The notes below the pieces were generated by a model. It searched no databases. It was not told the origin of the DNA and was given only the letters and a program-made list of their open reading frames with translations. From the NCBI GenBank assembly GCA_965153455.1, contig OZ234494.1, forward strand, positions 806,001 through 870,000: a stretch of DNA of 64,000 nucleotides, written 5' to 3'. This DNA is from Sphagnum compactum. Lineage: Eukaryota. The translations under genes were made by a program, and so were the position numbers. Within the stretch, counting starts at the first letter, position 1. The number at the start of each line of letters is the position of its first letter. Below, in pieces: positions 9,683 through 34,534 of this stretch.

Positions 9683-12600
9683 TTATACCTTCCCTGTGTA
9701 CTTAAAGTGCAGATCATAATCACGCCGCAATGTCATCAATGCACTCCGTCTTCCACCCTCTGCAATTTGCAAAACCCAACTGAGAAAACCTCCCACATAT
9801 AACAAGATATAAACAATGACCATCCTTTGTCTTTGGCATGCTGACAATGCAATCAATCCAATACAACACAAAATAAAGATTGAATCTCATTAGTGTTAGT
9901 CATGCAAAAAAAATGAAAAGCAGTTCCAGAAACTGCCAAATCCACACAATCTTCTGGAAAATCAACTTTCTTGCCAGTGAAATCTCCCCTGATGTCCTCC
10001 AATAGGGGCTAGCTATGAGATTCTAGAATATGACTTGGACCCATTAGAGGCATACCTCCAAAAGCCGCATGCAGTTGCTGAAGATCATTTGTGGAGCAGG
10101 CATCAAGCAGTGCATATGCACCTGGTCGTAGTGCACTATCCACTTCTCTGTCCAAATTGAAAAGAGCACATAGGGGTGAGTTATTCAACTATCACAAAGT
10201 CAATATGGTGTACTTAGTGCATAAAAAACTTCAGATGAGAATATTTGCTGGCAAATGGGAAAGAGAAGGCATCAGCAAACAGACGATATAATTCCAGACC
10301 TGTTGAGGCTGACTCCAGAAGCACCATATCCAGAAAGAACATTTAGATAGTCAGCAAGAATATGGCAGCAGTATTTCCCCATCGTCTCCTTATGCTCCCC
10401 CATCTGCAGCATCACCCAAAAAGAAGATCAAAGGACTGGCCTTTCACAAATGCAAGTCTTCAACCAATACACAAAGAGAATCCACCAAAAGAATTAAATT
10501 TCATGAATATTGAGAAATAACGAAAGCCAGTACACAGTGAGAATCAGCCAAAAGAACCATGAAAAATTACATAAGTACCAATGATTCTGAGCCCTGCAAA
10601 CAGAAACCACATCTTATTGTGACTAGTTGTAAGTGTACAGTGACATGACAATGGTTCCAAAGATGACCTCTTCGTATACTCGCCGCAACCAACTTGCACA
10701 ATGAGCAGCGCTAGCAACTGTGGAGACTGAAGGAGGAACATTCTCAAGTGAAATTGCCCAATTGGGGGCTGTTAAGCACTGTAGCAAAACCCGCGCAGAC
10801 TCTCCAAGCAAAGCCATGCTGTGTCCACATTCCCTGCTCGCCCCAGCCTTCCCATCACATGTCATCCTGCAGTTGTTACTGGCATTTGTGCAAGCATGCT
10901 AAGTCAGAAAGTACAACATTCAGAAATGTTTGATGATGAAATACTTGCCTCAGATGATGACGAAGAAGTGCACAGAGTAGCCGACAGCATGCAACATACA
11001 GTGTAATAACGTTCTCACTGAAGACTCCTGTGAATGAATCTTTTGTAACAGATCTCTGTTGTGATCCCCCTGCTTGCAAGTGCAAATTCTGCAGTGCCAT
11101 CAATTTTGCCATACCCTTTTCACAAAAGGGCCTGAAGAGTGAGGCAGGGCACTGGAGCCCAAGAGCCACATGGCAGGCCCTCATTGGGAAGATCACTGCA
11201 CGAGATGCCAGCCTTATCAGGACCTCCAAACTTTGTAGAACTACAGACACTGAATTCACCTTAGTGAAGCTCCTGCCTACTGCATCAGGTTTGTGTGTAT
11301 CTTCTTCAATGAAAAGAGAGGGTCTTTGTAAGTGCACTATCAAATTGAACAGAGCTCCAAAGAATGTTGGGCAATGGTTGGCCAACAAGTGCAATCGGGT
11401 TTTGCCTGCATAATCAAAAACCAGCCCACAATAGCAGTAAGTGCTCTCATTGTCTTGCAAAGTTGGAGGGATCTCAGACCTTGAGTTTCATATGCCCTAA
11501 AAGATTCTGAATTGCAAAAGCAAAAAAAAATGTAAAAATAGCCTACCTGAAACAGCCTGCAGGGCAATTCCCAGGCAGTCCACGCCTGCTGCAACAACAG
11601 CTCCAGCTTGTCCTGGGTGAAGGCCATCACCTGGATTGGACTTGACCCATACTCCGGCCATTGCTTTCTCAATAGACTGTAAGGCAAGTACCATATGATG
11701 CCTTGGAGCAAATCTCAATAGCCTCTCAAATGACCCACTTAGTGCAAAGGCTAAATGCTTTGAGGAACAGGTTTCTGAAGCACTTGTGTCACACCCTAGT
11801 TCCAGCATCCAGAAACTTTGAGCATGGCTGCTGTCCCAATCACCAGTTGTAATTCTTTTCTCCAGCTCAAGATCAAATTGTCGGGTGCTGCCTCTTGAAG
11901 GATTCTTGGAGTAGGACTTCACAACACCCATCAGGATCAAATGCAAGTCAACAAGCTTGAGGAAATCCAGAGGTGCAATGAATGGCCTCATACATGGCAG
12001 AAAGCTTCCAACTGAATCAACATATTTTACAACCCCTACAACCCAATTCAAGTCCATGTCATGCCCTGATTGAATCTGTTGTGCTGCTCCAGATAACAGC
12101 CAAAATGCAGCTCCCAAGTGATCATTCATGGAAGGAGGAGGAGAAGTTTTCAGGTCATCAAGTTGAGCTGATGAAGCAGAGTTTGAGAATGAAGCAAAAG
12201 GAGAAAAAAACAAGCTTCGAAGTCTGACAAGTGCTGCCATGGCAATGAATAGCTCACCAACAAGCTCTGATCTTTCCCTCATTTTTCCTTCCAGAATGCT
12301 TTGCAGTAAAGAAACCTGTGCAGAATCTGAAATTCCCCCAAAGCTTTCAATGTCCATGCCTTCCCTCTCCAAGAAATGTATATCAAATTCTGTCTGCATA
12401 GGCTCTTTTTCTTTACCCTCGTCCTCAAGAGCTTCTTCTTCATCCACCAGGTTCTCCACCATTTGTTCAACTAGCATCTCTTCATTGCTTGGTGCCTCAT
12501 CAGTACACATCAAGTGTTCACCAACAACAGCATCCTTTTGATTTACTTCTCCAAATTCTGTCTCTTCCATGTTTTTGACCACACTGAAATCAACACCCTC

Positions 12601-15600
12601 ATCTTCACTCTGGATACCAGACTGGGTAAAAAACTGAAATCCTTTGGCTCCTTCAGGGACCAAAGCTTGAAGCAAGCTTTGCACCAAAACTTGCTCAACT
12701 TCTTCAATCACAAGCAACCAAGTCTCTGGAAGCTCGGTTTTCCACACCAGTGGACTAGTCTTTGAGTTTCGACACTCCTCATCAAGGCTTTCCAAAGCCA
12801 GGGTCATACTCCAGAGAAAGCTACTGATGGCTGCTACTGGCACAAGCATTTCATACCACTGGGAAGAAGTTCCTCTACTTTGAAGGAAAATTTTCTTGAG
12901 TTTGTGTGCTCGGTTCAACAAAACTGAACACAACACAATGAGTGGTTCCTCGCAATCCACTAAACTATGATCCCTCAACTTTTTTTGTTTCTTGGCTGAT
13001 TTACTTGAGTGAGTTTGATGCTGGGTTACAAGAGGAGTTTTTGAAGTAGCCACTGAGGGAATTTCGGTTGATGACTTTGGACACAAGAGTGATCTCACCT
13101 CCAAATTGCAGATCTTCCCAACTGTTGACTCTATGATGGCGCATGTGCTCATCAGTAACGTATAAAGGATGCAAGTATCTTCTTGACCACGTATGCCACT
13201 TGTGTGATATGGCATGATCCAATCATCCATAAGATGATGTTGTTCCTTCACATAAGATCCCTTAAACACCTCGTCCAACAGGTATGATGCAACAATCTGT
13301 GGGACAAACAGTAGCCAATGAGAGGCCTTTGCACTACTGAAGAATGTTGACAGGTGTTGTGATTCTCCCCCCATATCAACCAAGCATTTGAGTGTGTTGT
13401 GGCAGGCACAGATGGCGATGAAGAAGCGACCGGGCAATGATGGAACCTCTGTCATTTCATGTTGAGGCGACTGTCCTGACTGACAACAGGCCACATGGTG
13501 CATGCTCTGAAGACTGTCAACTAAAAGCCTGCCACAAAAACCAAATGAAAAATTGATCAATCCCAAGCTGGAGAATTTTGGGTCTAACAACTCAAACTGC
13601 CAACACTTTCCCCTTGCAACAACAACAAACCAGACAACAAATACCATTTAACTGTCAGACACTGCAACGAGATGCCCTATGCAGACACATGACTTTTTTT
13701 CTGAAGGAAAAAACAACATGAAAGATTTGTTTACCACTGACATCATCAAAAGGAGAAACACCCAAACTTCCAGGATAAGGAACTCACTTTTCAACTCCAC
13801 AAATAACAGAACTGCACTGCACAGTATCCAGAGGATGTAGGTAACCCGAAGGAAGCAATGATAGCAGCCCAATTAACCTTATCAATTGACCAAATTCTTC
13901 CAGTTGAGCTCCTGTCCAAGATTCTGTCCAATTGGGTGACCGTGAATACATTGAGCTCATGTCGATAGGTTCCTGAGATCCCATTTGTGCTTTCAGTCTC
14001 TTCTTGAGAACTGCCCACTCCAGAAATTTGGACTCTGGTGATCTCCTCTGATCAACCACATGAGAATCCAATGGCTTGCACTTAAAGACCCTTAATGATA
14101 AACGCTTCACCTCTTCAAGAAATGCAGATGCAAAGACTTTGCGCAGGTCCTGGGGAGATGGTACGAGCAAAATATACCAACATGGTGTTAAGTATGGTCA
14201 AACATGAGGCCTAGAAAAAATGAAAGATGGAACAACATATGCTTGTGTATTTTTTGTCAGTTGTTAGACACACACCTGCTTACAAGTGAAATATAGAAAG
14301 CTTAACCTAATATGTGGTGATCTAGATGAGGAGGAATAAACAAGGAACCACAACAAAGAACAAAGGAGTTAAAGATGGGTTTCTATTGAAACCTCATTTT
14401 CAAAGAAGGCAACACTTGTAAGTACTTCCAGGGTGATGTCCTCCATGCAAATATGTGCAGAACCTTCGGTTTTGAAGGACCCAATCTTTGCCCTGAAACC
14501 TTCAGCAACTTGAAGCAAAATGGTGACAAATTGCTTCAAATGGTCTTCACTGGCATATGATGACCATACATCTGTTGTTTGACAAAAAAGGCGCCACCTG
14601 GAAAATATTAGATTAGTTCAGTAAAGCAGGGTGGAGACTCCTACTACGCTCTTCCCAGCCGAGTAATAAAACCAAAAGAAATGCAAAGCCATAAACTAAA
14701 AACTAGCCTGCTGATATGACAACCAAATGCACCGACAAAAATCATAGAAGTATGAACAGAAGTGAGAAACACACACTGTTCTGCTGACCGATTGTGTGTG
14801 TGTGTACAAGATGGAGAACAGTCTAATAAAGTGTTGGAAAAGAGAAGCTGGAGGGCAACACAGACAGGCACACATAGTACAAACCTAGCCACCGGTAGTG
14901 TGGTGGAAGTCAGGGTTGCCACAACAGAGTCCCACCCACAACTGCTTTCCTGGCCCATTCTATTGCTCAATTTGTGGACATCATTTGAATACACCTCAGG
15001 TTTGAGATCATTGAGCCCTTTCAATAAAAAGGCCACCAATTTTGTGCCCTCTCGATGAATTGATCGAAGCAACTTAGCAAATCTCTTTGTTGATCCATTA
15101 TTGCCTGACAAAAACTTCACTGCCTGTTGTTTCTCATGAAGGTCCACAAGGCTTTGTAACACAATCAAGTTGAGTGTGTACTGCAACTCAGGCACCCAGT
15201 CAAGCACATTTCCTCCAGATGACTTTTCAATCCGCTTCACAACTTTGGAAACCTTGACATGGCCTCTTTGAATGGGGCTAAAGAAGCCACTTCCTTTCAG
15301 CAATGCTATGATTTCAGCCTCATGGGCAGTCAGGTCAAGCACAGGCTCAAAAACTTTGGCCCTTGCTGTCTTCGCAGCCTTTGGCGCCATGAGGGATACA
15401 CACTGCCTGTGCAAACTTCGTGCAGCTGCGAACAATCGGAGTAGGAAAACTGATCTCCATGCGAGTGGAATACCATCAGCAATTTGTGGCTCTTCTTCAT
15501 CTGTATCACTTGGATCCTTGACTTGTTTCACATCTTCAAGACACCCATCCACCAGTTTTTTCAATGATGGACTGAGTACATTGATGAGTAAATCATTCAC

Positions 15601-18600
15601 TGCCCTTCCTGCAAGTAGGCTGAATGATACTGTGACATTTACATTGTTAAGAGAACAAATGTAGAGCTCAGTTAACCCTTTCATAATGCTATGAATGTTG
15701 TTTTCAGCTCCTTCATCCTCTTGATCATCAAATGTCTTGAGTGTTTCAGAGATGTCTGCTGACAGCTTCTTCAAAAACTGCATAATCTGACCTTCTGGAA
15801 GCTTCAATACAACCATCCCCATTGTAGCCAAAAAGGGCTTTGCACAAACAAACTTTTCCACACAATCTGTCACTGATTTGAAAGGCAGAGAACTTCTTAA
15901 ACTTCTTAATGTGACACAGAGATAAAAGATTGGAATGTCCACCTGGAGACCCAACAATAATGTCACCAGTTAAAAGAATAATTCCAGAGATATGGGCAAG
16001 ACTCAGAATGACCATAGGAACATTAGTTAGTAGGAAACACCAGTATCCTGCTAGTTTCTTTGCATATCACAAGTGTAGACATTGTAGAAAACACAAAGAC
16101 AAGATCAACTCCAGACCCACAACAGGGAACAACAAAAGAGAATAGAAAAGACCTGCCTGTCGCAAGTCACTGTAGATATCAAGTAGTCGACAACCGAATT
16201 TCAAGGCTTCTGTAAATATTGCTTCAGAGGAGGACGTATCAAGGCCCAGCATTTGGAACACAAATGTCCACAAATTTGCTACCTTTTCTTCAAACACATG
16301 GTACTCCAATTCAACAAGGTGATGGAGTGCAGAAATAACCTCCTGTGACAAAATACCAATTTCCTTCTGTCCTCCAGGTTCTGCAGATCTCATGTTCTTT
16401 TTTTGGGGGAAACTTGGACTCTTTGCCTTCAATAAAGCTGTCATTCCCACTGAAATCACTGAATTGTGGACTTCTTGCAAGAAATTGAAGTAAGTCAGTC
16501 CAGGAGTGTCTTCAATGGGCTTATAGGCATTAACCTCATTTCCTGCCTCAAGAAGTGAATTGACTGCTTGCAGTAACGAATGCATTTGCAGTAACTGAGG
16601 TCCATGCTGTCCTGACTCATTGCCATCATGACCCATGTCTAATACAAGTTGTTGCAAGTCCATAATGATTGGACTGAGAAGCTCGGCAAAAACATGAAAT
16701 ACTGCCTCACTCTCACCACCACCACCACCATGTTTTCTTGAAGCAGTCAAATCAGTTGTCTCCTCAGTCTTATCTACTACAGCTTCTTTAGCAGACTTTT
16801 TGTTTGCAATGTCATCTTTCCCTACTTCAGGATTGTTACCTACCAGAAAGAAGAAACACACCACACAAAATTAGACATAAACATCATACGTGGTCCTGGT
16901 CAAGTCATCACATTGTGAAGCACTTTGCACTTGAAAGACTCAATGTGATGGAATATCCATATGAAAGGATAAAGCCCTAATCTTACAGATAAGTCCATTG
17001 CTGAGGTACACCTTACACTACGAGGGTATTGACAGGACAATCAAAATATCTGATGTGATTGCGTCACACACTCACATACACCATCAGCTCAACTGCACCC
17101 AGGTTTACGGTATAGGGCTTGGGGTTGACCCTAAAACCCTGACCCTTCCTAAAAACAGCAAAAAAAAAGTAGGTCAAAAATTTGGCAACACTACCTGTGA
17201 TATCTCCATCTGGTTGCAGCTTTCCTTGACCCCGAACACCAAATACATCCTCAAATAAAGCCATCTGTTGTGCTCTCAAACAAAAGGCATACTCCTTAAA
17301 GAGAAACCCAAGCCCTTTTAACGCTTCAAGATTTCCATCTTTCTTGAGGTTGCTAAGTTTTTGAAACAATGCCATGTGATAGCTCTCTGACCGATTCCTC
17401 TTCCCCTCCACCCTCTGCTGCTCTTGCTGCATTCCTTTGACTCCTCTTAAAACCGTGCAAACTTCTGAAAACCCCTGGACAAGACTCGGATGAAACAAAC
17501 CAACTGCCAAGATTTCTTTGGCTGCTTTTACAATTCGTGACTGCAGCGATGATGGCCCCTCCTCTTTCTTGGGAGCTCGACTACCCGTGCCCCTCCTTCC
17601 AATGATTGTCAGCAACGGCTCTAGTAGCCTTGCAACAGTCACCTGAAAAACAAGTCTTGAATTTGGGTGCGATGTAACAGTCCTTACAAAAGCTTCAACA
17701 ATGATTGCAATAAGATGTTCTAAGGATGATGGGTGGTCCTTTGGCTGCCCAAAATTTTTCTCAAACAGTGCAAGAGCCGCTGTAGTCAAGGAAACCCAGT
17801 TATCTAGGTCGGCCCTGAAGGAACGCACATAAACAGATAGCAATAGTCTAACAACTTCAACTAACTCAATCATCAATTCGCCCATTGACTTCTCTGCAGA
17901 AGAACATGATGAAAGTCCACTATCAGCATGCACTAGAATTGCTGTTATTTGACGCATAAGTCCCTGAGAAATGCTTGTATTCTGATGCAGATAACCTGAT
18001 GACAAACACCACTTGAGAATGGACCAGTATCGGGGATCAAAGTGTGCAGAGAGCCCATGCTGTCGAAGCCCAGATTTGGAAGACTGAATGATGGACATCT
18101 CAACCCAGTTGAACACAAAACTGGCAACTTGGGGTGCTTTCATCCAGCCGGTCGCATTATTATGATCGCCTCCATCATGATCAAGAAAAGCACCAGTAGT
18201 TGCATTGTTGTGTGCACTTTGGGCTTCAATGAATTCCATTACAAGCTCAACCTTCCTGCTCCACAAAACATCAAACCATTGTCAACTACTGGATGTTATG
18301 ATCCATCTACGTCCTTCCCTAGGAGAGTTGATGAATCAATCAAACCCCAGAACCCTTTTAGACATGCTTAGGGTTTAGGGTTTAGGGTTTTGAGGCTCAG
18401 GGTCCATCATATGCCTCTCTCTGTTATAAAGAGATTCATCTGCTAATACAATAAAGGCGCAGTACACTCCAACAAACCAACAATGGGTGAATAACAAATC
18501 AGTAGGGAAGAGAACTTGATACACACAAAAACGACACACGTTCACAAGCAGCAGCAACCCTAAACCCATGCAACGAAAACAAAACAACGTGAATTTCACA

Positions 18601-19056
18601 CCTCTCTGAAGTTGTTGTTTGTTGCCGCAGAGCCTGAACAAGTTCAAGATTAGAATTCACAGAAATACGGCCGTCCTCCTCAGTTTCTCTTACTTGTTCT
18701 TCCACAAGCTTAACCTCCTCCTCCTCTTCCTTCTTCTTCTTCTTCTTCTTCTTCTTCACATTCCCTGTCGAATCCTCCAACGAGAAAAGACTCGAATCTG
18801 CCAATTCCTTTTGCTCCTCATCCTCCGTCTTGCTCACCTTTTTCCTCTTCTTACTCCTGGAACTTCCAGGAACAGAAGAAGAAGATTCAGGAGGTCCAGT
18901 ATTCGCCATTCTAAACTCTTCTTTCTTAAAAGAAGTTGAAGTTTCGAGTTTTGTCTTCGAACCCTTCTTCCTCTTCTTGTCCTCTCTTATCGCTTCCGGA
19001 GCTAACAGAACCTTGATTGGGTTTTCCTTCTCGGACAAGGCAGCCATGGGGGACAT
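9683..19056 (-). CDS. URB2: Nucleolar pre-ribosomal-associated protein 2 (Urb2/Npa2 family), ~2233 aa. Exons: 19056-18602, 18255-17195, 16839-16157, 15942-14885, 14597-14393, 14149-13788, 13528-11547, 11405-10949, 10833-10668, 10403-10300, 10147-10056, 9759-9683
   Basis: The long minus-strand ORFs join in phase at splice sites (sum 6702 nt). The C-terminus EVDSALRPGAYALLDACSTNDLQQLHAAFGEGGRRSALMTLRRDYDLHFKYTGKV* is the Urb2/Npa2 signature. The start could be 19056 or 19047. Two introns need GC donors. Confidence 0.9.
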
Positions 19057-19295
19057 GAGAAGCAGCACGAAGAATGGGAAAACTCAGGAAACAACGCGAG
19101 AGACAGAAGAAGACATACAGTGATTTAGGGTTAGGGTTGGGACCAAAGGGATTAGGGTTAGGACATACGTTTGTGTTCTTGTGCTTCTTCTGTGATCAAA
19201 ATCCTGAGTCCTGATCTCTGTCTCGGTGTTGGAAGAGATTTGATTCTTCGTTGCGGAATTTGAAGGGCTCGTTTGAGCCAAAGGTGAAGATCAAC
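19057..19295. promoter_or_regulatory. Compact bidirectional promoter/5'UTR region with telo-box-like (TTAGGGTT) motifs
   Basis: Only ~240 bp separate the divergent ATGs of URB2 and the L28 gene. TTTAGGGTTAGGGTT lies at ~19124 and ATTAGGGTTA at ~19151. Confidence 0.65.
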
Positions 19296-29805: not shown

Positions 29806-30048
29806 ATATATTTAATATGTACATATGTAGATAGATTTATGAATAAATTATTAATATAAAAATAAATAAATAAAATTAAAAAAAGAACACTAATTTGATT
29901 GATAAAGAGTTAATTCCCAATAGGGCAGATGAAAGAAGAAAATGTCCAGTAAATTAAAGGGGTTTTAACTTTTTACCTTAAAAAAAAAGAGCAAACATGA
30001 GTTAGGTTTTATACTTACTTTTACTATTACCTATTGCCAGAAATATCA

Positions 30049-30084
30049 TCCGTCCGTCCGTCCGTCCGTCCGTCCGTCCGTCCG
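30049..30084. repeat. (TCCG)9 microsatellite at the edge of a GC-rich promoter region
   Basis: Read directly. It is followed by a GC-rich region and a TATA-like CCTATAATAA at ~30226. Confidence 0.95.
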
Positions 30085-30674
30085 TGGAAACCGCAATCCT
30101 AACCGTCCATTGGCCCCACCCTCTTTTCAGTTCCATTCAGTTCCCGCTCGTTTCAGTTGGACGGCGCCCGAGACCGGGTCACTGGCCAGTCCGGTACTCA
30201 CTCTTGAAAGCTCCCACGACGACAGCCTATAATAAGGTTCCGCCTTCCGAACCTGCTAGGTATCGACCGGCCTCAACCCGTCTCCGTTCGCAGGCAGCCG
30301 GTCGCCTCCCCGCCTCCCGCGCGCGCGCTCGTTTGTTGCAACTTCCTTCTCGCACGTTCTCTCTGTCTCTCTCCCTCTCTCTTCTCCCTTCCGCTGTTCG
30401 GTTCGTGCGGGCGGTTTCGTGACGGGAGTTTTGCAGATGCTTTTTCGTTCGGTTGTGTTTGTCTCGGCGGCGTTTTGAAGCTCGGGCGGAGGATTGTATC
30501 CGTGTTTTTCCCGTTGTTTTTTTTCCGGCGCTGCTGCTGCTGCTGCTGCTTGCTGTTTAGGGTTTGTTTCTCCTTGAATAGAAAAGGAGACTGGGGTATT
30601 GGGAGAAGGAGGGAGGAGTAGAATCAAGAGGATCTTCGGTGGTGGAGAAAAGCAACAGTGGACAGGAAAAAGAT

Positions 30675-33600
30675 ATGAGCTACGCGGACGACGAAGGAGT
30701 GAACAGGCCAAAGCTTAGTCTGCAACCGCGTGGATCCACAGCTGATAATATGTCATCCGCATCTCCAGCCAAGACCAGTAGGGTGAGTGTGCGCTCCTTC
30801 CTCAGACTCCGATCTGTGATTTTTGGTTCTGGAGTATTGCCAGAAAATTTCAGACGATGTCATTTATATGTGCCTGTCGGTCGTCGCATGGTTTTGCATG
30901 CTGGGACCCTAAAAATCAGGTCTAGGGTTAGACTTTGCTTGGTTTATGGTATGCACGAAGGTTTGCCGTCAGGGTTTGATCTCATTCAGTGGTTTATCTA
31001 TTTTGCTGTTAAAACCACGCATGCATTCTATAATGCATGCAAATGTAATGGTTTCAGACGAGCACAATCTACTTACAGTGATCATGAAAGTTTTGCACCG
31101 AGCCCCTCAATGTTGGGGATACTTAGAGTTGCTGTGCTTTCTTTCTCTGTGATATAGCCGAATCCGTTTGGTGCTGCAAGACCACGGGAACAAGTTATTG
31201 CTGAAAGAGAAGGGAAAAAGGAAACAGAGGTTCTCAAGGAGCAAGCTCACAAGGAATGGAAACCCAATGTAAGACACACTGTATCTTTTTTGAACCTATA
31301 TTTTCACATTTCCATTTTTGAATCAGAGTAGAAAAATACAATGAAGTGATGACTGCTGTCATGATACAAAATGTCCTCATCTGGCAACTCTGCATAACTT
31401 GCAAGGGTTTTGAGTGAGTGCTCTGTTCATTCATCTGTCAAAGGCATGGCATCCAGGCTTTGTGATCATGAGTGGATAATATGTCAGTGAACCTAGGTCC
31501 CTTCACTGTTTTGGATATTTCTGAAATTTGTCTAGTACAGACATTAATGGCATGATTTACATAACTGATCTTCTAGCTGGACATTTTTGTGTTTTAAGTC
31601 CTTGACAAAACCTGTTTTGTATAGAGTTATGCTAGGTGCACTGAATCTTGCCATTGCTTCTGGAAACAAGACAGAAACTCAGCACACAGTTCTGTTTTTG
31701 GCTAGAATTACCATGACTGACTTCATTGGCTACTTTGTCACAGGACACAGACAATTGTGTCACTGCTATTCATGATGAAGGTCATGGTCTGATACTTTGT
31801 GAGTGACACTCAGAGGGTCATGACTGCACTCATTCTTGTTGTTCAGTTTTGGTTGAACAGACACCATAGTACCATCCAAGTGTTTCTGTGGAGCTTTCCC
31901 TGCAATCTCATAGATAGGAGGTATATGCTAGTTTGTACAAAATTGTGGATTGCAGCTGCTATATTATGTGATTGGAACAATTAGCACCTATCGTAATAGT
32001 TTCTAATGTGGGGAATATGTGTGATCTGCTTGTTTTTCAATTGGGAGGGCAGTTGGTTTTGACTGAACAACAACGTGAAGAGAAGAAAGCAGCAGAAGCA
32101 GAGCTGGCTTTCTCTAAAAGTGAGCTTGAAAAAGAAGTGGATCCAGTGAAGTCAAAATTCCTGAGAGAGGAGGTTATTGCCATGGAAAAAAGACTAGATG
32201 AGCTCTTGTTGTCATTTGAGGTACATCCTATTGCAGAAATTTCTATGTTGATTTTCTTAACAAAATTTGAGGCCTGATTGACTTAACAATTTCCCTTTGC
32301 AGCATAAGTGGTGCTGCATGTTCATATGCATGGATAGAGAATTTCACAATGAGATATATTTTTGTGGGTTAGGACAGTGAACTTCTTGTATCTTGAAAGA
32401 ATCAAAATGGGGAGGCCCTTGGTGTGTTCCAGTTCCCCACCTGGTCTTCAAGTTGTATGCTTTCTGTGTCTTTTCTGGGTAACGTGTGTTGCAGGTGTTG
32501 GTTGTCCACAGTTTGTGACTTTGTACGGCATTTGCATATTTTAAGATTGGACTGATTTTCACAAAATCATTCATGCAGAAAATGGCAGTTCAAACAGCAC
32601 AATCAGGTGGGGCAAGACGACCTCGTCGGGATGAAGATCGAGCACCTGCAGCAGCTGCTGCTCCTGCATATGCTGGTGATGTGGAGGGGTATGGAAATTT
32701 TAGCAGGGGCCGGGATCGTGATTCTGGTAAGGGAAGCTCATACGGCGATACATGGGGAGGAGCAAAGGGCAGGTCAGGTGCTGAGGGATGCTACAACTGT
32801 GGAGAGGTTTGTAGCTGTTCTTGCATCCAACCATTTTGTGTGAACTTAGTCATTTGAACCTGGTGGTTTCATGTTTTGGTATGCTTTCATGCAAGAAGCA
32901 GAAAGTGGTCTTTCTTCTCCTGGGAGAAGGGTCAGAGAAGTGATTAGAAGTGAACAACAGGGTCCCAAATATTGCAATCCCAGAGGTGTAACCTGCTGTG
33001 CAGTGAACCTGAAATTTGAAAGTTCTAGAACTGAGTTGGATCAGAACTTGGTCTCATATGGAATTGAAGAGTGTTGAAGGGAGGCAGTAACCTTAGAGGA
33101 GAGAGGCTCTCAGCCACATGTGTTTGCCAGATGACTGTATCAGAACTTGGTCTGAATATGGAATTGAAGAGTGTTGAAGGGAGGCAGTAGCCTTAGAGGA
33201 GAGAGACTCTCAGCCACATTTGGTTGCCAGACCACTGTATCATTCTCCTTTTAAAGAGTTTTCTTGCCATGGAGTTTTCTTGCTTCATGATGGCTTTACA
33301 CTCAAGGTGCACAGTATGAGTGTGTTTGTGGACTGATAATGCAGCCATTTTGGAAGCTGAAGTTTGTGTGATTGCTTGACCTCAGGTGGGCCACTTCTCT
33401 CGTGAATGCCCAAATGCTGGAACTGGTGGTGGTGGTCGAGCTGGTGGTGGCTATGGTGGAAATTTCGGTGGTGGCGGAGGGGGCCGAGGTGGGGTAAGTC
33501 GTCCTTGCTACACATGTGGCCAAGAGGGTCACTTCTCCCGTGAGTGTCCCCAGGGTGGACAGTATGGATCTCGTGGTGGAGGAGGCGGCGGCGGTGGCAG

Positions 33601-33793
33601 TAGCTATGGAGGAGGAGGCTATGGCAGTTCATATGGTGGTGGTGGTGGTGGTTATGGGGGCAATACTTATGATGATGGTGCTCAGTATGGTGGCAGTCAA
33701 GGTGGCAGCTATGGCAGCAGTGGTTACAATGATCGCAGTGGTTACTCATCTGCTGCCCGTGGAAGTTATAATCGGCAAGGAGAAGATTGGTAA
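30675..33793 (+). CDS. 340-aa protein with plant eIF4B-like motifs, a coiled coil, two CCHC zinc knuckles and a Gly/Tyr/RGG-rich tail. Exons: 30675-30782, 31158-31268, 32053-32220, 32579-32806, 33386-33793
   Basis: Five phase-0 GT-AG joined exons total 1023 nt. Motifs: RPKLSLQPR and PNPFGAARPREQVIAE (eIF4B-type), CYNCGEVGHFSREC and CYTCGQEGHFSREC (CX2CX4HX4C). Confidence 0.88.
33040..33242. repeat. 99-bp tandem duplication in intron 4 of the zinc-knuckle gene
   Basis: ATCAGAACTTGGTCT..ATATGGAATTGAAGAGTGTTGAAGGGAGGCAGTA.CCTTAGAGGAGAGA..CTCTCAGCCACAT at 33040 and 33139. Confidence 0.9.
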
Positions 33794-34534
33794 TCCACAT
33801 TGGATCTGTAGGCAGTAGGAGAAAAGTCCAGCTGCTGGGTTTTGGACACATCGGTTCACTGTGAGTGCATCGTTCAGTTTCATTGTGTAGCTAGAGGTAG
33901 TTAGAATGCTTTCTGATGAAATGGGAGTTTACTTGTGGGCTGAAGTTAACTCCCACTATGTGTTAGTTTCTTTTATGATTTCATTTCCTTTTGTGCCAGG
34001 AAATACGGAAGCTAAGGCCTAGTTTTGCCTACTGTGATTTTTGGAAATTCTGGTCATGCTTGCTGCCTCACAATAGTTTTTGGTTATGTGTGTGGTGTGC
34101 CCAGTTCTAATAAGTTGCTCTTTTGCAAAATTTTCAAGAATCATGGTGAAACTTTTGATAAGTCTCAGGACAGAAAAAGTGTCTACATGAGCAGTATAGT
34201 CGAAGGCTTCACTCTGTGCCTCTGACTGCAGGGACTATGCCATTTGTGCTGAGAAAAGAATATGCAGTTATCTGGTTAGCTGTGAACAGATTGGAGACTG
34301 AAAACCACTGTTGCTATCACCATGGGGTCAGTTTGTGACCCTCTGAAGTTAAAAAAACTGAATGTTTTATTTGTCTTTGAGCAGGAAAAGCTTGTAAGAC
34401 ATGGATGGTTCAACATGCTAGCATCCAAGTTGACTTAAAGGGCAATGATAGCAATCTAAGCAGTAGAGTTGCTCTAAGGGTGTGTAATTTCTTTGAGAAG
34501 GAAGTGAGCACACCTATTTTTTGTTATGCTGAGA

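Follow-up and report, generated by a model that had tools for sequence, protein, structure and literature searches.

A moss gene that joins an eIF4B-type module to two CCHC zinc knuckles, a candidate mRNA accessory factor of the green lineage

The window analysed here, a stretch of 64,000 nucleotides from the moss Sphagnum compactum (GenBank assembly GCA_965153455.1, contig OZ234494.1, positions 806,001 to 870,000 of the forward strand; G+C 36%, zero N), carries on its plus strand a gene with five coding exons. Positions are counted from the first letter of the window. The predicted product of 340 amino acids starts with motifs of the kind found in the translation initiation factor eIF4B and continues with a charged region, two CCHC zinc knuckles and a glycine-rich tail. 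An earlier note, made from the letters of the window, had pointed out this combination. We are highly confident that it is a real gene of a conserved family which possesses an eIF4B-homologous module. What the protein does is a more tentative matter and is discussed after the evidence on structure, homology and distribution.

Gene structure and expression

The gene is composed of the following parts.

30389-30674, plus strand: 5' untranslated region (UTR; start approximate), CT-rich, with a (GCT)n run; the RNA contigs of runs X1 and X2 start at 30389
30675-30782, plus strand: exon 1, coding part, amino acids 1-36; RPKLSLQPR at amino acids 11-19 (bases 30705-30731)
30783-31157, plus strand: intron 1, GT..AG; joint in RNA sequencing (RNA-seq) reads
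31158-31268, plus strand: exon 2, amino acids 37-73, PNPFGAARPREQVIAEREGKKETEVLKEQAHKEWKPN; eIF4B-type NPFG motif, then the beginning of a helical region
31269-32052, plus strand: intron 2, GT..AG; joint in RNA-seq reads; contains a transcribed core that looks like a repeat
32053-32220, plus strand: exon 3, amino acids 74-129; helix 1 and most of helix 2 of a predicted charged helical hairpin
32221-32578, plus strand: intron 3, GT..AG; joint in RNA-seq reads
32579-32806, plus strand: exon 4, amino acids 130-205; end of the hairpin, RRPRRDEDR patch, Arg/Gly/Asp region, first half of knuckle 1
32807-33385, plus strand: intron 4, GT..AG; interrupts knuckle 1; contains a 107-bp tandem duplication
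33386-33793, plus strand: exon 5, coding part, amino acids 206-340 and stop; second half of knuckle 1, spacer, knuckle 2, tail
33794-34100 and beyond, plus strand: 3' UTR; sense-strand RNA depth of 17-43 up to the end of the stretch covered

Joining the five exons by coordinate gave a frame of 1023 nt, i.e. 340 codons and a TAA stop, with GT..AG at the borders of all four introns. Intron 4 cuts the first knuckle behind CYNCGE (bases 32789-32806), and its second half, VGHFSREC, starts exon 5 (bases 33386-33409). Knuckle 2 is encoded by bases 33506-33547 of the same exon. A search with exon 3 retrieved P0001, a 340-residue 'unnamed protein product' of Sphagnum balticum, which has identical junctions and shares 331 of 340 residues with the window protein. 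P0001 was used as a proxy for the spliced protein of the window in the domain and homology tests below.

Of 24 public runs found, 13 were recorded as RNA. Between 0.22 and 0.28 of the sampled words of a 3.8-kb stretch were present in those runs, which is about the expectation for exons plus UTRs. Splicing was examined in X24, a run of stranded poly(A) raw reads with a matching species label, and in three RNA runs available as contigs. In X24, 750 reads were placed. Read depth climbed from the 30427 bin in the 5' UTR, was confined to the sense strand and, with the exception of a spike in intron 2, was restricted to exons and UTRs. Joint 30782/31158 was crossed by 95 reads with 52 different starts, joint 31268/32053 by 47 reads, joint 32220/32579 by 33 reads (20 starts) and joint 32806/33386, inside the first knuckle, by 16 reads (14 starts). 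Several of these joints recurred in the contigs of the three further RNA runs, 32220/32579 in two of them. At joint 31268/32053 another 45 reads had a C in place of the first base of exon 3; these and 309 X24 reads placed at 90-95% likeness probably originate from a paralogue. The intact frame and the intron-split knuckle read by the earlier note from the letters were thus borne out by the coordinate join, by RNA-seq and by P0001.

The frame might still be an artefact, in that exons 1-3 and 4-5 are wrongly joined neighbours with separate transcripts, or a chance open reading frame (ORF) in low-complexity DNA. No individual short read of X24 crosses all five exons, and the opposite strand of the GGN-rich exon 5 can also be read as a long ORF, though one without meaning. 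Against this stand the reads and contigs which connect exon 3 with exon 4 in one transcript, the strand-specific depth limited to exons, contigs of transcript size (1.2-1.3 kb) from relatives that carry the full-length fused ORF, and an architecture maintained from Chlorokybus to Ginkgo. The junction reads of X24 refute an artefact, and we assign it next to no chance.

Several small features of the locus were seen in passing. The apparent 5' UTR has a 13-codon upstream ORF (ATG...TGA, 30437-30478), and a (CCGT)n microsatellite at about 30046-30085 and the (GCT)n run at about 30530-30550 flank promoter and UTR. Two sets of metatranscriptome contigs covered a segment of intron 2 at 31697-31823, with its core at about 31758-31812, to depths of 3757 and 5167; in the poly(A) raw reads the depth was about 59. 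Many loose ends with varied flanks lie on both sides of the segment. The core had no Rfam match (the locus as a whole gave just two sub-threshold chance matches) and thus is not a known snoRNA; a second copy was absent from the window. Its appearance is that of a short repeat, dispersed and transcribed, similar to a miniature inverted-repeat transposable element or a short interspersed element, or else that of a novel small RNA. In intron 4 a 107-bp unit is tandemly duplicated (33037-33142 and 33136-33242, 92% identical by blastn).

Domains and predicted structure

Amino acids 37-52 of the window protein, PNPFGAARPREQVIAE, follow shortly behind RPKLSLQPR. Exon 3 encodes a charged stretch with a high content of Glu, Lys and Leu; the product of exon 4 comprises a disordered Arg/Gly/Asp region which includes SYGDTWGG. 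Exact CX2CX4HX4C patterns start at amino acids 200 and 246. The tail (amino acids 263-340) consists of 42% Gly, 17% Ser and 14% Tyr and terminates in GEDW, and in the whole protein we counted two RGG and eight GGY/YGG sites. This confirmed the positions of all elements named in the earlier note.

Pfam scans of the individual exons gave an eIF-4B match on exon 2 (21.7 bits) and a zf-CCHC match on exon 5 (47.4 bits); exons 1, 3 and 4 were without a match. In P0001, the two domains were above their thresholds: zf-CCHC (PF00098) scored 61.6 bits in two stretches (cut-off 20.8) and eIF-4B (PF06273) 36.1 bits (gathering cut-off 28). All five family members tested passed both, with 34.4-36.1 bits for eIF-4B. 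An RNA recognition motif (RRM) was not detected in any Pfam scan, be it of the window exons, P0001 or the relatives, and a cold-shock domain (CSD) was not detected in the window exons, P0001 or the family members scanned with it.

A structure was predicted with AlphaFold2 (AF2) from an alignment of 43 sequences (mean per-residue confidence, pLDDT, 54; predicted TM-score, pTM, 0.28). Two helices behind the motif, residues 78-100 and 104-137, form a helical hairpin with block-mean pLDDT values of 87-95. Helices at 46-54 and 58-73 were predicted with less confidence and the knuckles with about 70-77. Approximately 190 of 340 residues had values below 50, i.e. they are predicted to be disordered. 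A Foldseek search of the model against the PDB returned nothing at E<=0.001; what came up were helical hairpins and knuckle peptides of a generic kind.

In the family alignments the best-conserved block is the N-terminal module (N-module) together with the hairpin, not the knuckles. Residues F40, G41, A43, P45, E47, E58, E88 and F128 are invariant in all 43 aligned sequences, and a basic patch behind the hairpin, RRPRRDEDR or RPSERRR, is also conserved. The protein is therewith composed of an eIF4B core module (amino acids 1-137), a basic disordered Arg/Gly/Asp/Tyr region, two CCHC knuckles with a Gly-rich spacer and a Gly/Ser/Tyr tail.

Relationship to eIF4B

The claim that the N-terminal motifs are of the eIF4B type withstood three comparisons. 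The first is the above-threshold Pfam eIF-4B match. Next, in a BLASTP alignment of P0001 with the angiosperm eIF4B-like protein P0037 (519 amino acids), residues 11-53 matched the first motif copy (26/44 identities, 59%, E 4e-10), and residues 26-125 matched the second copy and the coiled coil trailing it (29/100 identities, E 2e-7). A local hidden Markov model (HMM) of the N-module found the same two places in P0037, with 34.3 and 23.1 bits. The third comparison was a profile of the N-module only (alignment A3, built from parts of 15 proteins) against all 177,635 distinct PDB sequences. It gave three rows at E<=10, of which human eIF4B (6fec_u, residues 350-418, E 0.0052, 20 bits) was the sole significant one; the other two had E values of 3.6 and 4.6. 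The human segment reads RPKLNLKPR ... IFGGAKPVD ... EERLQKEQEKLQ, the last part being a charged helix. Because the N-module profile matches human eIF4B, we consider the motif a piece common to plant and animal eIF4B. Plant eIF4B has two copies of it, human eIF4B a single one.

Other searches were less telling. The whole-protein profile A1 had 19 PDB matches, all from the knuckle region, and exon 2 alone had none at E<=10. In structural databases, the C-terminal half matched nucleocapsid, TUT4/7 and Lin28-type knuckles. In the ESM Atlas (scores 0.81-0.83, taken as a lead only) the N-module was nearest to a chlorophyte cluster and the N-terminal half of canonical eIF4B nearest to streptophyte eIF4B clusters.

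Compared with plant eIF4B, the moss protein shares RPKLxLxPR and NPFGxA(R/K)PRE, a weaker similarity along the coiled coil after the second eIF4B repeat, and a mostly disordered chain rich in Gly, Arg, Asp and Trp/Tyr. However, it is without the N-terminal half of eIF4B and the second motif copy, and possesses instead a helical hairpin that is tighter and better conserved, as well as two CCHC knuckles. It is also smaller: about 340 amino acids as against about 520 in the complete P0037 (P0188 has 383, the truncated P0036 395). Canonical eIF4B-like proteins were all free of knuckles (3 of 3; P0036, P0037 and P0188), in agreement with the earlier note. Because the Pfam score surpasses the cut-off and the full-length eIF4B architecture is absent, the window protein is treated as a member of an eIF4B-related family, not as eIF4B proper.

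Animal eIF4B and eIF4H are built according to a similar logic, a structured RNA-binding unit plus the motif plus low-complexity regions. The C-terminal end of eIF4H carries a motif very similar to RPKL/NPFG. Yet the RNA-binding unit of the animal proteins is an RRM, for which the moss protein appears to have CCHC knuckles, and the motif is located C-terminally of that unit whereas it is N-terminal in the moss protein. In addition, the match of animal eIF4B to the N-module is weak, as the E value and bit score given above indicate. According to a passage in PMC9598784, the arginine-rich second RNA-binding domain of mammalian eIF4B includes Ser406 and Ser422; human residues 350-418 lie at or beside this region. 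According to the legend of Fig. 3 in PMC12709193, eIF4H interacts with eIF4A through a region at its C-terminus, and in a passage of PMC10948362 eIF4B and eIF4H are said to contact the N-terminal domain of eIF4A. A function of the motif is not given in PMC4718061 or PMC4081068.

As a separate observation, the NPFGEARPREEVLAEKGKDW-type eIF4B motif is matched six times in P0089 (1219 amino acids), behind an unrelated N-terminal region; four of the matches are near-identical tandem repeats. Evidently, the eIF4B motif is a mobile, repeatable unit.

Distribution and evolution of the family

Relatives were collected by word-seeded searches with N-terminal queries. The Sphagnum query had 34 matches among 545 candidates. 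Both Pfam domains were present in 25 of them, zf-CCHC only in four and eIF-4B only in five; the latter are fragments, Closterium models and two canonical eIF4B-like proteins. A Ginkgo query had 28 matches among 372 candidates. The module joined to two knuckles was found in the following groups.

Mosses: Sphagnum (at least two loci in S. balticum, one in S. fallax), Physcomitrium
Liverworts: Marchantia (one match), Calypogeia
Lycophytes: Diphasiastrum (two loci), Selaginella
Ferns: Adiantum, Pteridium, Psilotum
Gymnosperms: Ginkgo, Wollemia, Cryptomeria, Taxus
Streptophyte algae: Chara, Mesotaenium, Closterium, Chlorokybus, Mesostigma

An angiosperm orthologue was not found in the two N-terminal searches, which is good evidence of absence, not proof. 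The sole angiosperm matches were canonical eIF4B-like proteins reached via the short motif, one from Erythroxylum (E 9.5e-4) and an eIF4B3-like protein from Cynara (E 2.6e-4). Since even these were reached, the searches should also have been able to pick up an angiosperm orthologue whose N-module is conserved. The suggestion of the earlier note that the architecture may be restricted to non-seed plants and algae therefore needs to be modified. It fails for the gymnosperms, of which four genera have the architecture, and is consistent with the lack of an orthologue in angiosperms; concerning the algae it must be qualified, because chlorophytes have the N-module without knuckles.

A search with a full-length profile yielded 7450 matches at E<=1e-3 and 44 at E<=1e-30. 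We considered the best 150 of the 7450, in which multi-knuckle proteins are mixed with true members, so that tiers are visible and not every carrier of the N-module is included. Among the matches listed, a second tier of about 100-155 bits, aligned along the whole profile, is made up of chlorophytes.

Second-tier chlorophytes: Botryococcus, Symbiochloris, Parachlorella, Coccomyxa, Chlamydomonas, Trebouxia, Pyramimonas

All named chlorophyte proteins are knuckle-free. The N-module HMM detected 80 of 198 proteins examined at 60 bits or more, 43 of which had been used to build the model. No knuckle was present in 47 of the 80 (many of the knuckle-less ones are fragments), one in three, two in 29 and four in one. 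Knuckles are confined to streptophytes, in which two of them are present from the earliest-branching algae on, and chlorophytes combine the N-module with a Gly/Arg tail. A quick maximum-likelihood tree of 39 members, supported by SH-aLRT values only, separated chlorophytes, streptophyte algae, bryophytes, lycophytes plus ferns, and gymnosperms as in the species phylogeny; transcript P0027 was placed at the base of the seed-plant clade. The family is ancient and vertically inherited.

The chlorophyte orthologues, e.g. those of Coccomyxa, Trebouxia, Botryococcus and Chlamydomonas (Cre06.g252850, the mating-type-locus gene 522875), score 123-151 bits on the family HMM, although most are below the Pfam eIF-4B cut-off. 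In addition to the N-module they share the basic RPSERRR patch and a Gly/Arg-rich tail, which in them is RGG-rich. A conserved QDR[YF] terminates the tails of core chlorophytes, unlike that of Pyramimonas. The Coccomyxa orthologue bears the name HABP4/PAI-RBP1 (SERBP1-type); we rejected this assignment, as no such Pfam match turned up in P0001 or in 12 relatives including P0081 (E<=0.01). For Cre06.g252850, a cilia methylome table in PMC11244166 has an entry under 'Translation-related', with R212 methylated.

A few peculiarities of individual members are added here. The 13 chlorophyte members of alignment A2 end in QDR[YF], with the exception of P0142 (RDRF). Moss members end in W, and in 25 of the 43 sequences aligned the last residue is Y, W or F; P0037, the sole complete angiosperm eIF4B-like protein, terminates in W as well. 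The conserved aromatic C-terminus may be a shared C-terminal ligand motif. The Mesostigma viride model P0042 leaves the family frame right after CYNCGEV, at the position of intron 4 in Sphagnum. This suggests that an unspliced intron is contained in the model and that the position of the knuckle-splitting intron is ancient. In sequences from JGI metagenomes, P0051 (294 amino acids) has the N-module with two CCCH fingers and two CCHC knuckles, and P0043, P0189 and P0191 constitute an N-module variant group with four CCHC knuckles.

Possible functions

The best explanation overall is that the window contains a real, expressed gene of an old RNA-binding family of the green lineage whose product acts as an eIF4B/eIF4H-like accessory factor of mRNA. 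We put the probability of this reading at roughly 45%. The protein would operate on cytoplasmic mRNA. Its N-module might bind the usual target of the eIF4B motif, that is RNA and possibly eIF4A, PABP or eIF4G, and the knuckles together with the RGG/GY tail might grip single-stranded RNA in the role that an RRM has in animal eIF4B and eIF4H. The outcome could be an aid to unwinding or to the assembly of messenger ribonucleoprotein particles. A specific partner is argued for by the N-module, which is more conserved than the knuckles and is kept in chlorophytes that have none. We infer a function as a small eIF4B/eIF4H-like factor on these grounds; the mechanism proper, i.e. that of a translation cofactor, is held tentatively, at somewhat worse than even odds.

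A number of points weigh against such a role. In P0001 the Pfam eIF-4B match covers amino acids 10-53 and corresponds to 44 of 502 profile positions (240-283); the N-terminal half of the profile (positions 1-230) is unmatched, and so the architecture of a full-length eIF-4B is not seen. The NPFG motif is present once in P0001 and twice in P0037. A link from the motif to eIF4A or PABP is drawn from general background and from analogy to animal eIF4B/eIF4H. The source of the Chlamydomonas protein was a cilia preparation, and its 'eIF-4B' label is derived from Pfam, hence not independent evidence. The Gly-rich tail and the knuckles are generic features of nucleic-acid chaperones. Finally, the apparent loss in angiosperms shows that the protein is dispensable beside canonical eIF4B paralogues or has another role.

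Such generic features are at the core of the view of the protein as a general RNA chaperone or as a glycine-rich protein of stress granules in the manner of the plant cold-shock-domain proteins (CSPs), RZ-1 or CNBP. The eIF4B-like motif would then be just another arginine-rich RNA-binding patch with no connection to initiation. A pair of CCHC knuckles with a Gly-rich spacer, together with an RGG/GY tail, is what one would expect of it, as are the roughly 190 residues predicted by AF2 to be disordered and the nucleocapsid, TUT4/7 and Lin28-type matches of the C-terminal half; moreover, the matching stretch of human eIF4B adjoins an RNA-binding arginine-rich motif. Knuckle chaperones such as PpCSP1/AtCSP, RZ-1 and CNBP/Gis2 indeed have the same CX2CX4HX4C knuckles with Gly-rich spacers and a Gly/Tyr/Arg tail. 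But the moss protein has neither the CSD of the CSPs nor the RRM of RZ-1, and two knuckles where CNBP has seven, while the chaperones do not have the eIF4B-like N-module, the defining and most conserved part of the moss family. The better conservation of N-module and hairpin points to a specific partner, and wholly knuckle-less chlorophyte orthologues retain the module. A general chaperone appears rather unlikely to us on balance. Many CCHC-knuckle proteins are nuclear, and the conserved RRPRRDEDR/RPSERRR patch could be a nuclear localization signal, so the protein might be a factor of nuclear RNA processing (splicing, TRAMP-like surveillance or ribosome biogenesis) which uses its knuckles as ZCCHC proteins do. 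With no domain or motif of a nuclear pathway in the Pfam scans and with cytoplasmic eIF4B as the sole homology beyond the family, this is quite improbable.

A further-reaching and distinctly speculative scenario, which we would not bet on, can be sketched. The family, and not the 520-residue 'plant-specific eIF4B', would be the original small eIF4B/eIF4H-type helicase cofactor of the green lineage and the sole eIF4B-type protein in chlorophytes. Two CCHC knuckles as a substitute for the animal RRM would have been gained at the base of the streptophytes; the protein would then have been active beside canonical eIF4B over hundreds of millions of years and been lost once in the angiosperm stem. 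A single loss at this point, if true, would explain why the family is absent from the literature on model plants.

The earlier note had raised the possibility that the architecture belongs to an already characterized family. In the literature searched (eIF4B with zinc knuckle or CCHC in plants and Physcomitrella, PF06273, Chlamydomonas 522875/Cre06.g252850) neither a description of it nor a functional study of the family was found. Public databases do contain the architecture, in entries called 'hypothetical' or 'CCHC-type domain-containing' for which both Pfam assignments are precomputed. Its lack in Arabidopsis and in crop plants explains why the family was overlooked. Among the core initiation factors, plant eIF4B is the least understood; it is without an RRM and bears little resemblance to its counterparts in animals and yeast, and an eIF4H is not known to be recognized in plants. 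The family isolates the one motif common to plant and human eIF4B. With this motif beside a defined RNA-binding unit, a compact protein of 340 residues offers a convenient minimal system to find out what RPKL/NPFG binds. The distribution amounts to a clean test, set up by evolution, of how redundant the initiation machinery is, and Marchantia and Physcomitrium are tractable for knock-outs.

Neighbouring genes

Two further loci, both on the minus strand, were observed in the window.

10876-19083, minus strand: long open exons of 716, 441, 405, 267, 203 and 194 amino acids
27527-28270, minus strand: open frame of 247 amino acids

In one exon of the first locus an Urb2/Npa2 match stays below the threshold (25.5 bits, cut-off 27.1); this is probably a large Urb2/Npa2-like gene of ribosome biogenesis. 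The open frame of the second has a sub-threshold Myb/SANT-like match (Myb_DNA-bind_4, 24.6 bits, cut-off 27).

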